Part shown: one piece after another, positions 6,197-42,826 of the stretch
Layout of the letters: each line of letters starts with the position of its first letter
Position numbering within the stretch: the first letter of the stretch is position 1
IMG/VR virus record: IMGVR_UViG_3300028832_000096
Source of the DNA: a virus
Taxonomy: Duplodnaviria; Caudoviricetes
Strand: one strand, 5' to 3'
Length of the DNA: 64,000 nucleotides
The notes under the pieces: generated by a model
The model's database searches: none
What the model was told of the DNA's origin: nothing
The model's input: only the letters and a program-made list of their open reading frames with translations
Program-made: the position numbers and the translations under genes

Positions 6197-7684
6197 TTAC
6201 AAATTAGAATTTGGGATAGTATACATATAATCCCAAGGCATTGCATATTCAATCTGTCGTGCTATCGCAAATACTCTATCATCTTTATATCTAGGAGCGA
6301 TTACTTGCATACCGATAGGCAGTTTTTCATTAGACATACCGATAGGAACTGACGCTGCTGGAAATCCAATCATATTCTCTAAATAAGTATAAGCAAAGCC
6401 AATGAGCGGGTCTATAGCAACTCCATTTATGTTATCAGGGCCTTTTGTATTGTTGTTTGTTCCATTTTTAGGATTCAAGCAACCTGCTATCGGTGAAATG
6501 ATAATATCATAATCCTCAAATATATTACAATGAGCATCTAAAATATCTGTTCTGATTTCATGGAACTTTCTATAATCCATCATTGTAGATGCAAAAGCAA
6601 TACTATCCCAGTAAATGAATTCTTCTGGAAGGTCATCTGCATGTTCTCCAATTAAGTCGAAACCGTTACGCTTTGCTAACGCGTTGTCGATAGATGAATC
6701 TACGCTAATTCCTCTTAACCAGGCCTCTTCCATTTCTCTAGGAGTGTAATGGAAATCAAAATGAACTTCCTCTACAATGTTCCCAAAATTTTTGAGCACC
6801 TCTATTGTTTTAACAAACTCTGCTTCAATTACAGGGTCAGGATGAGGGAAGATATCAAAATTATATGTGTAACCTATACGGTAGTGCTTATCACGGAGCA
6901 TCTTGTTTTTATCTAGTATATTATCAACCAAATGCTCAGGAGTGATTACACTAATCGGGTCTCTAGGGTCATGCTTTATCATTTCGGCAAGTACTGTTGC
7001 AGAATCGTCTACTGTTCTAGTTATCGGTCCACCACAACAATAGGGGTGTGTAGCTGTCCAAGCATCGGGTCTGCATACACTAGGAACAAGTCCCGCAGAA
7101 GGTTTATGGCCGAAGCAACCGCACCAAGCAGAAGGAATTCTAATAGAACCACCAGCATCTCCACCTTCAGCAATAGCCATCATTCCAGAACCTACAGCAG
7201 AAGCACTGCCACCAGAACTTCCACCAGAATTATATTCTGTGTTAAACGGAGTAGATGTAGGACCATACATTTTATTATCTGTGGTTCCTCTGAAACCAAA
7301 AGCAGGAGCATTTGTTTTACCTATTACTATTGCACCAAGATTCTCCATTGCTTTGCAGATTTCTGAATCATAAGCATCTACAGCTATAAGAGATTTAACT
7401 CCTCCATGTGAATTTGTCCAACCTTCTTTACTAGGTAAGAAATCTTTGAGTCCAACAGGAACTCCGGCTAAAGGACCTACATAGATTCCTTTTTCCAGTT
7501 TATCTTCAATCTTCTTTGCCGCTAATCTAGCTTCATTAAATTTAGTATATACAATCGCATTAACTTTAGGATTAATCCGATTAATCCTTGCTTCATATTG
7601 GTCAAGAATTTCTGTAGGAGTTATCTCCTTATTGTTGACCATATTTCCTAATTCTAATGCTGAGCAATAAAAAATATCCTTCAT
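6197..7684 (-). CDS. Amidase signature family enzyme
   Basis: GLKD, GGSSGGS and GGSIRIPS motifs (Lys-Ser-Ser triad); start reassigned to ATG 7684 with AAGGAG RBS. Confidence 0.9.
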   Translation of the reverse strand: MKDIFYCSALELGNMVNNKEITPTEILDQYEARINRINPKVNAIVYTKFNEARLAAKKIEDKLEKGIYVGPLAGVPVGLKDFLPSKEGWTNSHGGVKSLIAVDAYDSEICKAMENLGAIVIGKTNAPAFGFRGTTDNKMYGPTSTPFNTEYNSGGSSGGSASAVGSGMMAIAEGGDAGGSIRIPSAWCGCFGHKPSAGLVPSVCRPDAWTATHPYCCGGPITRTVDDSATVLAEMIKHDPRDPISVITPEHLVDNILDKNKMLRDKHYRIGYTYNFDIFPHPDPVIEAEFVKTIEVLKNFGNIVEEVHFDFHYTPREMEEAWLRGISVDSSIDNALAKRNGFDLIGEHADDLPEEFIYWDSIAFASTMMDYRKFHEIRTDILDAHCNIFEDYDIIISPIAGCLNPKNGTNNNTKGPDNINGVAIDPLIGFAYTYLENMIGFPAASVPIGMSNEKLPIGMQVIAPRYKDDRVFAIARQIEYAMPWDYMYTIPNSNL

Positions 7685-7737
7685 TATGTTCTCCTTAAAT
7701 GAAATATAAAAGAGTGGGCAGTATATGTCCACTCTTT

Positions 7738-7746
7738 ATAACGATT
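7738..7746 (-). promoter_or_regulatory. Putative early/middle promoter motif AATCGTTAT (first of 11 copies)
   Basis: Exact 9-mer at 7738, 11974, 12885, 33225, 41059, 41815, 42794, 45862, 50146, 51954, 57681, at gene boundaries in one orientation. Confidence 0.75.
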
Positions 7747-7762
7747 TTTATTTTAGTAAATG

Positions 7763-8895: not shown

Positions 8896-9273
8896 TTATG
8901 CCTCCCAAGGATAAACAATCCATTTATTTTCTTTATATCGCATGAAGTAATCAGGAACTACGCAACTTGCTGTATTGTAATACATAGATGCAATCTTATA
9001 ACCTTTATTAGCCCAAGCTTTCGCAGTATCACCAGTGTCAATGATATCATCTACAACTAAACAGCCTTTCTGTGGAGCACCTAAGAAAGGCAAATTGTAC
9101 TTGTGAGATATAATAACTGCAAAGATTAATCCACCTCTAGGCGGACCATATACGCCTGTAAAGTTAGAACTAGAAATAAGAGGTTCTAGTAATGTGATAA
9201 AGGCATCGACATCATCCCAAGTTACTTTAACCTTTTCGACTGTCATATCACGCAAATCTCTTTCGTTTTCCAT
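8896..9273 (-). CDS. Type I phosphoribosyltransferase (xanthine/guanine PRTase-like)
   Basis: PRGG loop, PRPP-binding LVVDDIIDTGDT, C-terminal WIVYPWE. Confidence 0.85.
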   Translation of the reverse strand: MENERDLRDMTVEKVKVTWDDVDAFITLLEPLISSSNFTGVYGPPRGGLIFAVIISHKYNLPFLGAPQKGCLVVDDIIDTGDTAKAWANKGYKIASMYYNTASCVVPDYFMRYKENKWIVYPWEA

Positions 9274-11089: not shown

Positions 11090-11404
11090 TTAATCCTCCT
11101 TTTCATATAATTCTGGAAACGCTAACATGATTAAATCTTCAATTCTATGATAAGTATCTGTCTGGCCATAGTATCCTGGTTTATATCTCTTATGAAGATG
11201 ATATACTGGAGACCCAGTTTTCTTACTATACCTACAAGGTCTAATTATTCTGGATTTATAATGTACTTCATGAATATCGCACTTGTGCGTTTTACCGTGA
11301 ATTCTGCTTCGAGTAACTACACGGCTAACACTTCTGACTCTGCCTATATTAGATACTTCATAAAGATTTTCATAATTAGGAATAGGACGCCAGACTTCTT
11401 TCAT
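11090..11404 (-). CDS. NUMOD4 domain protein (no HNH domain visible)
   Basis: EVWRPIPNYENLYEVSNIGRVRS NUMOD4 signature. Confidence 0.75.
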   Translation of the reverse strand: MKEVWRPIPNYENLYEVSNIGRVRSVSRVVTRSRIHGKTHKCDIHEVHYKSRIIRPCRYSKKTGSPVYHLHKRYKPGYYGQTDTYHRIEDLIMLAFPELYEKED

Positions 11405-11411
11405 ATTGACC

Positions 11412-11915
11412 TCACATATCAAATCTTATAGCACGATTACTTGCATCTCTGAGGGCGTCAAGCTGACGAGATTTTGCGTAATCTGCATAATCAAACTTAG
11501 GATTAGCCCAATTGACGAAAGGAAATATACTAATACCTCCTCTAGGTGAGAAAATACCTCTTACTTCGATGTACTTTGGGTCCATTAGTTTAATGAGGTC
11601 TTTCATTACGATATTCATACAGTCTTCGTGGAAATCACCATGGTTTCTAAAAGAGAAAAGATAGAGTTTAAGCGATTTACTTTCTACCATGTTTTCATTA
11701 GGAATATAGCTAATAATTACTTTAGCAAAATCAGGCTGGTGTGTCTTCGGACAAAGACTTGAAAATTCATAAGCATCAAAACTTACAACATAATCATTGT
11801 CCTGATGTTTGTTGATAAATGTTTCAAGTACTTCAGGGCAATAATCTGTAGGATACTTTGTATTCTGATTTCCGAGCAGTGATACATTACCGAGTTCTTC
11901 AGTATTTCTTGACAT
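11412..11915 (-). CDS. queF: NADPH-dependent preQ0 reductase (type I)
   Basis: [11 protein letters not shown] catalytic Cys/Asp, ESKSLKLY QueF motif, FHE, PRGGI. Confidence 0.95.
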
Positions 11916-11935: not shown

Positions 11936-11970
11936 TTAAAAGGTGTAACCTATAAATATAGATTACACCT
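11936..11970 (-). terminator. Terminator upstream of queF (candidate riboswitch expression platform)
   Basis: Minus strand AGGTGTAATCT...AGGTTACACCT followed by TTT. Confidence 0.65.
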
Positions 11971-11991
11971 ACTATAACGATTATTCGTGTT

Positions 11992-12047
11992 GTGTAACCT
12001 GTTATTTTTGTTTAATGAGGGGCTGTCAAGGTAGTTACAAAACCCTC
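11992..12047 (-). ncRNA. Putative preQ1-I-like riboswitch aptamer no. 2 (transcriptional, upstream of queF operon)
   Basis: Stem GAGGG/CCCUC, loop UUUUGUAACUACCUUGACAGC, A-rich tail AUUAAACAAAAAUAAC, then AGGUUAC able to pair with loop GUAACU; loop resembles aptamer no. 1. Confidence 0.55.
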
Positions 12048-41776: not shown

Positions 41777-41782
41777 AAAAAT

Positions 41783-41830
41783 CCTCCTGAATCGTATTGG
41801 ATGTGGTGATGTATATAACGATTCAGGAGG
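41783..41830 (-). promoter_or_regulatory. RBS-sequestering hairpin with promoter motif in its 5' arm
   Basis: CCTCCTGAATCGT...ACGATTCAGGAGG 13-bp stem; 3' arm holds the HD gene SD, 5' arm overlaps AATCGTTAT. Confidence 0.7.
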
Positions 41831-41860
41831 CTGCTATAAGTATGTACTACATATACAAGG

Positions 41861-42630: not shown

Positions 42631-42826
42631 GCCATTTATTCGACTAGGAGCAAAGAAATAAATGGCGAAAGACTTTACTCGAAAGTTCGCTTTATTTTCA
42701 CGGAGCGTAACTCATGGTTACATAATACACAGAGCGAACTTACAAGAGCTGTTGCTATTGGCACACGTATGCCTGAACCATGTGCCATAGAATATAACGA
42801 TTCAATTAGCGATAAAAGGCAGCTCT
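42631..42826 (-). ncRNA. Unknown structured ncRNA, copy A
   Basis: Pseudoknot and long hairpins conserved with compensatory changes in copy B (49812-49980). Confidence 0.65.

Follow-up and report, generated by a model that had tools for sequence, protein, structure and literature searches.

The minus strand is the coding strand for every gene in the region considered here, as judged from the ORF list of the window, by which we mean the whole 64-kb stretch of phage DNA that was analysed and that derives from a bovine gut metagenome. Along this strand, a copy of the promoter-like motif AATCGTTATAGTA is followed by a leader element (E1), a yhhQ-type transporter gene, a second element (E2), another copy of AATCGTTATAGTA, an intrinsic terminator and an operon starting with a queF-like gene. 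The features of the locus are the following:

12893-12881, minus strand: promoter-like motif AATCGTTATAGTA located 5' of E1, an exact 13-mer of which the window contains three copies
12854-12791, minus strand: E1 leader aptamer, with stem AGCGGAG/CUCCGCU, the 21-nt loop UUCGUACUUCCUUACGACAUC and an A-rich tail
12798-12791, minus strand: Shine-Dalgarno (SD) sequence UAAGGAGG of E1, complementary to the loop sequence CUUCCUUA
12781-12056, minus strand: yhhQ-type (Vut_1) gene for a 7-deazaguanine precursor transporter (Pfam PF02592, E=7e-21)
12058-12056, minus strand: yhhQ stop codon TAA, 8 nt 5' of E2
12047-12043, minus strand: 5' strand GAGGG of the E2 stem P1 (from the sequence, a compensatory change in relative L001 and family covariation)
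12042-12022, minus strand: E2 loop UUUUGUAACUACCUUGACAGC, 21 nt, of which UUUUGUA, CCU and GA(C/A)A are family-invariant (alignment A3)
12022, minus strand: closing C of E2, which occupies the place of the preQ1-I specificity cytosine and does not vary in alignment A3
12021-12017, minus strand: 3' strand CCCUC of the E2 stem P1 (sequence, family alignment and covariation)
12016-12001, minus strand: A-rich tail AUUAAACAAAAAUAAC of E2, the L3 equivalent, which fits the family tail consensus
12000-11992, minus strand: putative switching strand AGGUUACAC, a 9-mer complementary to the terminator 5' arm GUGUAAUCU
11982-11970, minus strand: second copy of the promoter-like motif AATCGTTATAGTA, which ends next to or within the base of the terminator stem
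11970-11941, minus strand: intrinsic terminator hairpin of 13-14 bp, with arms at 11970-11957 and 11954-11941 (terminator scan, inverted repeat and MFE)
11951-11943, minus strand: repeat of AGGUUACAC within the terminator 3' arm (repeat finder)
11940-11931, minus strand: U-rich tract UUUAAUUUUU (terminator scan)
11927-11922, minus strand: SD sequence AAGGAG of queF, read from the sequence
11915-11412, minus strand: QueF-like gene (Pfam QueF, E=6e-32)

The terminator arms are followed by UUUUAAUUUUU and then by the SD sequence and ATG of queF. The order of the operon is queF-(NUMOD4)-queC-queD-queE-(PRTase-like)-folE, and its que and folE assignments are based on Pfam matches (QueC, PTPS, Radical_SAM and GTP_cyclohydroI). 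The 110-aa ORF located between queF and queC (11090-11422, minus strand), which overlaps the end of queF by 11 nt, contains a NUMOD4 domain and is homing-endonuclease-like; a similar ORF is located directly 3' of yhhQ in the related contig L003. The 125-aa ORF in the queE/folE interval (8896-9273, minus strand) shows a weak match to the phosphoribosyltransferase domain (E=1e-4, below the Pfam cut-off), a function outside the canonical preQ0/preQ1 route. Two ORFs 3' of folE, after an unannotated ORF of 200 aa, a gene encoding a GatA-like amidase is present (6197-7732, minus strand; Pfam Amidase, E=4e-86), which has its own promoter motif and a hairpin upstream. In contig L025, a sequence resembling the N-terminus of this amidase is found 3' of yhhQ, and the enzyme may be involved in further processing of a 7-deazaguanine derivative. 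One RNA run yielded a single 176-nt contig, located inside queF (11736-11911); such contigs do not show RNA ends.

A first-pass annotation, made from the sequence alone, had described a stem, a loop, a tail, a repeat and a promoter-like motif directly after the transporter gene. Read on the minus strand, all of these sequence statements are correct, and the 146-nt region folds into a structure that was equalled by none of 200 shuffled sequences (z = -3.45). E2 had further been regarded as a second copy of the aptamer type present in the yhhQ leader. This view is borne out by the family alignment and by an HMM of one subfamily (the U-subfamily) built from 21 leader elements of other phages, excluding the window sequence and the E2 copies. 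Screening the 64-kb window with this HMM gave E2 (12047-11998) as the top match (E=5e-11) and E1 as the second (E=0.021). Because a model derived from other phages ranks it first, E2 is a genuine member of the family, and its resemblance is beyond chance. High scores were also obtained with covariance models (CMs), namely 65 bits for E2 with CM R1 and 64.5 bits for E1 with CM R2, each element being part of the training set of the model concerned; R1 also retrieves further family members on which it was not trained.

E2 is conserved at the same place in two related IMG/VR phages, L001 and L002, whose transporters share 69-71% identity with YhhQ of the window; the aptamer, the tail and AGGUUACAC are almost unchanged in them. 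The A-rich tail is identical in L001 and near-identical in L002, and the 25 nt formed by the tail and AGGUUACAC are the same in the window and L001, though the YhhQ proteins of these two are only ~71% identical. Stem P1 is GAGAG/CUCUC in L001 versus GAGGG/CCCUC in the window, i.e., one compensatory change. A search of IMG/VR with the pattern CAAAAATAA..GGTTACAC returned only the contigs of L001 and L002, which were both already known.

Relatives of the two elements were gathered by protein searches anchored on the transporter (IMG/VR and metagenomes), by searches anchored on QueF (IMG/VR) and by a DNA pattern search that is blind to gene context. The protein-anchored and pattern searches placed E1 and E2 in a single RNA family of ~50 distinct elements. 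The family is characterized by a G/C-rich stem of 5-9 bp that is variable in sequence yet always complementary, a loop of 12-29 nt (21 nt in E2) that begins with UU(C/U), contains CCU and ends with C, and a tail such as A(U/C)AAAUAAAAA(C/U)(U/A)A that is followed by AAGGAGG and a start codon. Two subfamilies can be distinguished, one with the loop UUUUGUA..CCU..GA(C/A)ANC, to which E2 belongs, and the other with the loop UUCG(U/G)A..CCU..AAUC, which includes E1; R2, the CM of the E1-type subfamily, connects both phage subfamilies at 26-27 bits. In all identified cases but two among the ~50 members, which are from gut and rumen phages apart from one in Streptococcus phage Dp-1, the gene located 3' of the element encodes a Vut_1/YhhQ or a QueF-like protein. 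The exceptions are the element at L022:594, which precedes a 152-aa ORF that has no Pfam match, and that at L021:544, which is followed only by an ORF of 50 aa. The association also holds for the five members of IMG/VR that were found by the context-blind pattern only and that have both the stem and the A-rich tail (L239, L241, L248, L287 and L295), all of which precede Vut_1 genes.

Stem P1 is supported by covariation. Double changes were found for all five base pairs in one subfamily, where every cell of the alignment is paired as compared to 36-62% when the partner strand is slid, and for four of five pairs in the other subfamily; these statistics are inflated, since members were collected via a stem filter or a CM, and the complete pairing is partly by construction. 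A candidate inner helix, UGU/ACA or UUCG/CGAA, was rejected, since G16 does not change although its supposed partner is either C or A, and the version of the C-subfamily shows no variation.

Among the searches made, the family was seen only in phage contigs, and those of bacterial genomes were shallow. No element was found with R1 in 151 Clostridia genomes, for which 37 candidates were scored per genome. In genome contigs, all 120 of the matches listed for the loose pattern AGTTTTGTA..CCT..GAMA fail the filter for stem and A-rich tail, an outcome that says little about absence from bacteria.

The copy number and placement of the element shift quickly among related phages. The metagenomic relative L021 contains three intact copies and a degenerate-looking, E2-like copy (544-617, 1131-1188, 2002-2055 and 2160-2223): one is located ahead of a tiny ORF, one on each side of yhhQ (that on the 3' side is the degenerate-looking one, which scores 32.5 bits with R1) and one ahead of queF. 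In L022, the yhhQ leader (1130-1200) has the family tail UACAAAUAUAUUAAAAACAGGAGG and a 7-bp stem, ACACAGG/CCUGUGU, followed by a loop that does not start with UU; this leader is a further variant that the family filters missed.

Downstream of E2, the terminator scan identified a 13-bp stem with four G-C pairs and a T-run (11970-11931), and an equivalent hairpin plus U-run is present in L001 and L002. The repeat (A)GGUUACAC, 8-9 nt in length, occurs both in the tail of E2 and in the terminator 3' arm, at a distance of 48-49 nt in all three phages. The partner of both repeat copies is the terminator 5' arm, which is GUGUAAUCU in the window and GUGUAGCC in L001 and L002. For each of the three phages, the predicted MFE structure of the nascent RNA, before the 3' arm has been made, contains P1 together with an antiterminator helix formed by the tail and the 5' arm, and the predicted MFE structure of the full-length RNA contains the terminator. 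Thus, the folding predictions recover the terminator and the mutually exclusive antiterminator that had been proposed for the window, and they do so also for L001 and L002. As GGUUACAC is invariant among the three phages, the antiterminator helix shows no covariation.

The terminator-coupled form is seen in three related phages only. The other family members are translational, with an SD sequence and an ATG directly after the tail. This agrees with the earlier proposal of two different expression platforms at this locus: E2 is coupled to a terminator, and the loop sequence CUUCCUUA of E1 can pair with the SD sequence UAAGGAGG. In L088 (564-700), an aptamer is followed by an SD sequence, a very short ORF, an intrinsic terminator and queF, and folding indicates that the SD strand can pair into the terminator region; L088 may, according to this prediction, be a second, independent terminator-coupled member.

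The first-pass annotation had also suggested a pseudoknot between the loop sequence GUAACU and the tail. This register does not hold up, as it is broken in L001, where the loop has GUAUCA; the corresponding complementarity, UGUAAC/GUUACA, is present in the window and L002. A plausible family-wide register pairs CCU of the loop with AGG of the tail, and in E2 the tail sequence AGG(U) is complementary to (A)CCU of the loop, which would form the putative helix P2. In a longest-helix test across the family, loop-tail pairing was not above controls (6.0 bp versus 5.7 bp for shuffled loops).

The motif AATCGTTAT had been taken for a phage promoter, and its distribution in the window argues in favour of this. 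About 13 copies, with the consensus (A/T)TCGTTAT(A/G), are present on the coding strand; the clearest ones are intergenic and located just 5' of ribosome-binding sites, which begin 4 to ~45 nt downstream. In relatives, the motif is found 20-25 nt 5' of E1. The E2 copy is the only one that has a TTGACA-like hexamer with four of six matches, GTTACA, and this hexamer is part of the switching strand; the remaining 12 copies have one to three of six matches, and a four-of-six match occurs at ~15% of random positions. Judging from these sequences, the motif behaves like a phage promoter that has no -35 box.

The motif, in the form (G)AATCGTTAT(A/G), repeatedly precedes or lies in a strong hairpin with a U-run (7690-7760, minus strand; 41780-41860; 42740-42800; and 3' of yhhQ in L023). 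At window position 7745, it is followed by the hairpin GAGUGG..CCCACUC UUUUAUAUUU, and at 41822 it is part of a 13-bp stem that also pairs with AGGAGG of the next gene. This looks like a general design of the phage, in which promoters are nested in terminators or in hairpins that include a ribosome-binding site. At E2, a transcript starting a few nt downstream of the motif would have a truncated 5' arm and would thereby bypass the terminator; with a start no more than 3-4 nt away, the hairpin would stay largely intact. Since yhhQ and queF carry identical 13-mers, E2 could control only the read-through share of the transcription of the queF operon. The proposed gating of the biosynthesis operon by E2 would apply to this share and not to all of the synthesis.

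Taken together, we consider it fairly probable that E2 functions as a transcription attenuator and that it belongs to a phage-borne offshoot of the preQ1-I riboswitches with an enlarged loop. According to this model, the yhhQ mRNA would extend at its 3' end into E2. At low levels of the precursor, which would be preQ1 or possibly preQ0, the tail strand AGGUUACAC would pair with the terminator 5' arm once this has been made, and the resulting antiterminator would block the terminator, so that RNA polymerase could read from yhhQ into queF-queC-queD-queE-folE. When the precursor is abundant, the aptamer would be stabilised by P1, by docking of the A-rich tail on P1 and by the loop CCU/tail AGG pairing; it would then hold part of the switching strand, so that the terminator would form and read-through would end. 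In E1, the same aptamer type would hide the ribosome-binding site of yhhQ. Expression of the synthesis operon that does not depend on the ligand probably comes from the promoter-like motif at the terminator base, and E2 would tune this operon rather than fully gate it. The supply of the DNA-modification base would then probably be throttled at two levels. The observations comprise the anatomy of the sequence, the membership in the family, its conservation, the link to particular genes and the alternative folds as predicted. We infer the ligand, as well as ligand-dependent termination, from gene context only, and the direction of switching, the pseudoknot and the start site of the promoter are likewise parts of the model.

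A different explanation, which appears unlikely, is that the hairpin is an insulator, i.e., a constitutive terminator of yhhQ in which the next promoter is nested, and that E2 is a decaying duplicate of E1 that has no regulatory output. The layout of motif followed by hairpin does occur without an aptamer (window position 7745 and L023), yhhQ is followed by an ordinary terminator in most relatives, a separate promoter motif serves the queF operon, and L021 contains a degenerate-looking, E2-like copy. However, an insulator does not account for the 8-9-nt repeat that creates the antiterminator and is found at a fixed spacing in each of the three phages. Decay is also at odds with E2 itself, which retains all family-invariant positions, scores like working leaders with R1 (a model trained on it) and with the independent HMM, shows a compensatory change in P1, and has a tail that is 100% conserved across phages whose proteins are ~70% identical.

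The relation of the element to the preQ1 class I riboswitches was examined in terms of both the Rfam models and the defining features. Screening the whole window with Rfam at the gathering thresholds revealed only a tRNA and no preQ1 model, and the matches obtained besides the tRNA at low thresholds are chance matches. RF00522, RF01054 and RF02680 (preQ1-I, -II and -III, respectively) gave no match to E2 or E1 at E<=10 in slices of 1.4 kb, 76 nt and 91 nt. RF00522 has a gathering threshold of 39 bits, and bacterial leaders used as a positive control scored 46-51 bits with it. On phage records, RF00522 produced weak matches of 9-12 bits; among those mapped, only that in the leader of L015 (10.3 bits) is on a family element, and two weak matches in the record of L001 fall outside of it. 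RF00522 also misses the relatives and the leader of Streptococcus phage Dp-1, a family member described below. In the opposite direction, R2 aligned one of four canonical bacterial preQ1-I aptamers in homologous register, weakly (20.6 bits, E=0.035) and only with loop gaps of 2+7 nt and a tail gap of 7 nt; this aptamer scores 51 bits with RF00522. Because RF00522 recognises neither element, including at E<=10 in slices of 76-91 nt, the family is not a recognisable member of RF00522; from its sequence features, it looks like an enlarged-loop offshoot of preQ1-I. Of the earlier claim of a second, cryptic preQ1-like riboswitch, the parts that stand are that E2 is of the same aptamer type as E1 and is coupled to a terminator; the scan with the Rfam class I model, which had been proposed as a check, is negative.

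The features that define class I are UU after P1, C before the 3' strand of P1, an A-rich tail and then AGG (PMC11625349). In the phage elements, UU(C) likewise follows P1, its 3' strand is preceded by C, and an A-rich tail leads into AGG. Two further criteria for preQ1-I membership are a compact aptamer (a loop of ~11-13 nt and ~34 nt overall) and the base that precedes the specificity C, which is U in type I and A in types II and III. In the phage family, E2 has G at this place, E1 and the majority of the C-subfamily have U, and part of the U-subfamily has G or C.

These features bear on the possibility, which we consider quite unlikely, that the family is a riboswitch for a ligand other than preQ1, such as preQ0 or another 7-deazaguanine intermediate, or that the enlarged loop forms a different pocket. 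The failure of the Rfam preQ1 models, a loop about twice the canonical size and, in E2 and some of the U-subfamily, a closing C preceded by G or C instead of U or A would fit such a ligand, as would the facts that YhhQ is reported to prefer preQ0 (PMC10622847) and that preQ0 is the substrate of QueF. Conversely, the UU that flanks the class I pocket, the closing C and the A-rich tail are all retained, preQ0 as well as preQ1 is bound by known aptamers of class I (PMC10622847), and the association with QueF, the enzyme that makes preQ1, fits end-product feedback.

It is very unlikely that GGTTACAC is a DNA-level, -35-like box of a queF promoter and the stem-loop a protein-binding or mRNA-stabilising structure at the 3' end of yhhQ: GTTACA is indeed located 16-17 nt 5' of TATAGT/TATATA in all three phages, with a sigma-70-like score of 9 of 12, but the other 12 motif copies are at background level for a -35-like hexamer, so that the conservation of GGUUACAC is not accounted for by a -35 role, and neither is the identical copy inside the terminator 3' arm or the family tie of the stem-loop to the leaders of yhhQ and queF.

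The preferred reading, attenuation by a preQ1-I-like aptamer, had been placed in the first-pass annotation within a probable DNA-modification pathway. Streptococcus phage Dp-1 (NC_015274; L349 in our collection), whose DNA contains dPreQ1 (PMC6884629), has a member of the RNA family at nt 76-125, directly after the first annotated promoter and before gp1, which is QueF-like; the record of Dp-1 has no riboswitch annotation at this position. The Dp-1 operon encodes QueF-like, QueC, QueD, QueE, FolE and QueT proteins and a transglycosylase. No DpdA/TGT gene was found in the 64-kb window, and a tblastn search of it with Dp-1 gp7 was negative. A search of complete relatives with the Pfam TGT domain (PF01702) had suggested that these also have no DpdA, and this result was discarded as a false negative, since Dp-1 gp7 finds homologues there. 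They are present in three complete relatives (E=1e-45 to 1e-51), tens of kb away from the que clusters. Because of these homologues, a role in DNA modification is likely for the lineage on sequence grounds. The pathway claim is thus supported at the level of the relatives, which encode a Dp-1 gp7-like transglycosylase, and not by the window, where DpdA was not found.

According to a review, phage genomes seldom contain riboswitches (PMC5473149). We found no description of a preQ1-type switch on phage 7-deazaguanine clusters in the searchable literature or in Rfam 15. New in the present locus are a terminator-coupled copy that is intercistronic and stands in tandem with a translational one, and a nested promoter. 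In a broader proposal, put forward tentatively, gut, rumen and streptococcal phages would own an undescribed variant or subclass of preQ1-I that controls the supply of a DNA base. It would have been redeployed twice on one mRNA, as a translational switch for import and as the first intercistronic, terminator-coupled switch for read-through into the synthesis genes, with a nested promoter such that only read-through is metabolite-gated. If confirmed, phages would regulate a DNA-hypermodification (anti-restriction) pathway by direct sensing of a metabolite, the smallest riboswitch fold known would gain in range of sequence and structure, and the locus would be a natural case of one aptamer type with two outputs in one transcription unit. 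The idea is directly testable because Dp-1 is culturable, is known to contain dPreQ1 in its DNA and has a family member in its leader.

Among the known systems, Dp-1 resembles the window phage in that it encodes QueF-like, QueC, QueD, QueE and FolE proteins plus a precursor transporter, with the same RNA family in the leader. It differs in having one translational copy that heads a single operon, and QueT instead of YhhQ, whereas the window phage has two copies with different outputs. The E2 arrangement also resembles that of the transcription-terminating B. subtilis queC leader, in which the 3' segment of the aptamer doubles as the antiterminator strand against an intrinsic terminator (PMC11625349). 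In that leader, the ligand stabilises docking of the 3' segment and thereby keeps it out of the antiterminator.

With the type III preQ1-I riboswitch of the E. coli yhhQ leader (PDB 8fza), the phage family shares the control of yhhQ and the UU after P1, and in type III the whole SD sequence is buried by a pyrimidine-rich loop, as proposed here for E1 and most family members (PMC10622847). Type III, which is found almost exclusively in Gammaproteobacteria, has a consensus that is smaller and more stringent than that of any other type (PMC10622847). The phage loop is much larger, and E2 has no SD partner at all.

Canonical preQ1-I aptamers, of which CGUGG-UUCGAAACCAUC-CCACG-CAAAAAAACUAAGGAG is an example, are close to the phage elements, type 1 especially. 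Both have in common a G/C-rich P1 of 5-7 bp, UU(C/U) after its 5' strand, C before its 3' strand and an A-rich tail followed by a short 3' segment that is able to pair with the loop. They also share the genes alongside, which are for the synthesis and import of preQ1; E2 sits between yhhQ and queF. The differences are that the phage loop, in this comparison, is 18-29 nt (21 nt in E2) versus 11-12 nt in the canonical aptamers fetched, that the phage tail is about twice as long, and that the closing C of E2 is preceded by G and not by U or A, so that the pocket may differ. Finally, E2 is intercistronic rather than located in a 5' leader, and it has a promoter-like motif inside its expression platform.
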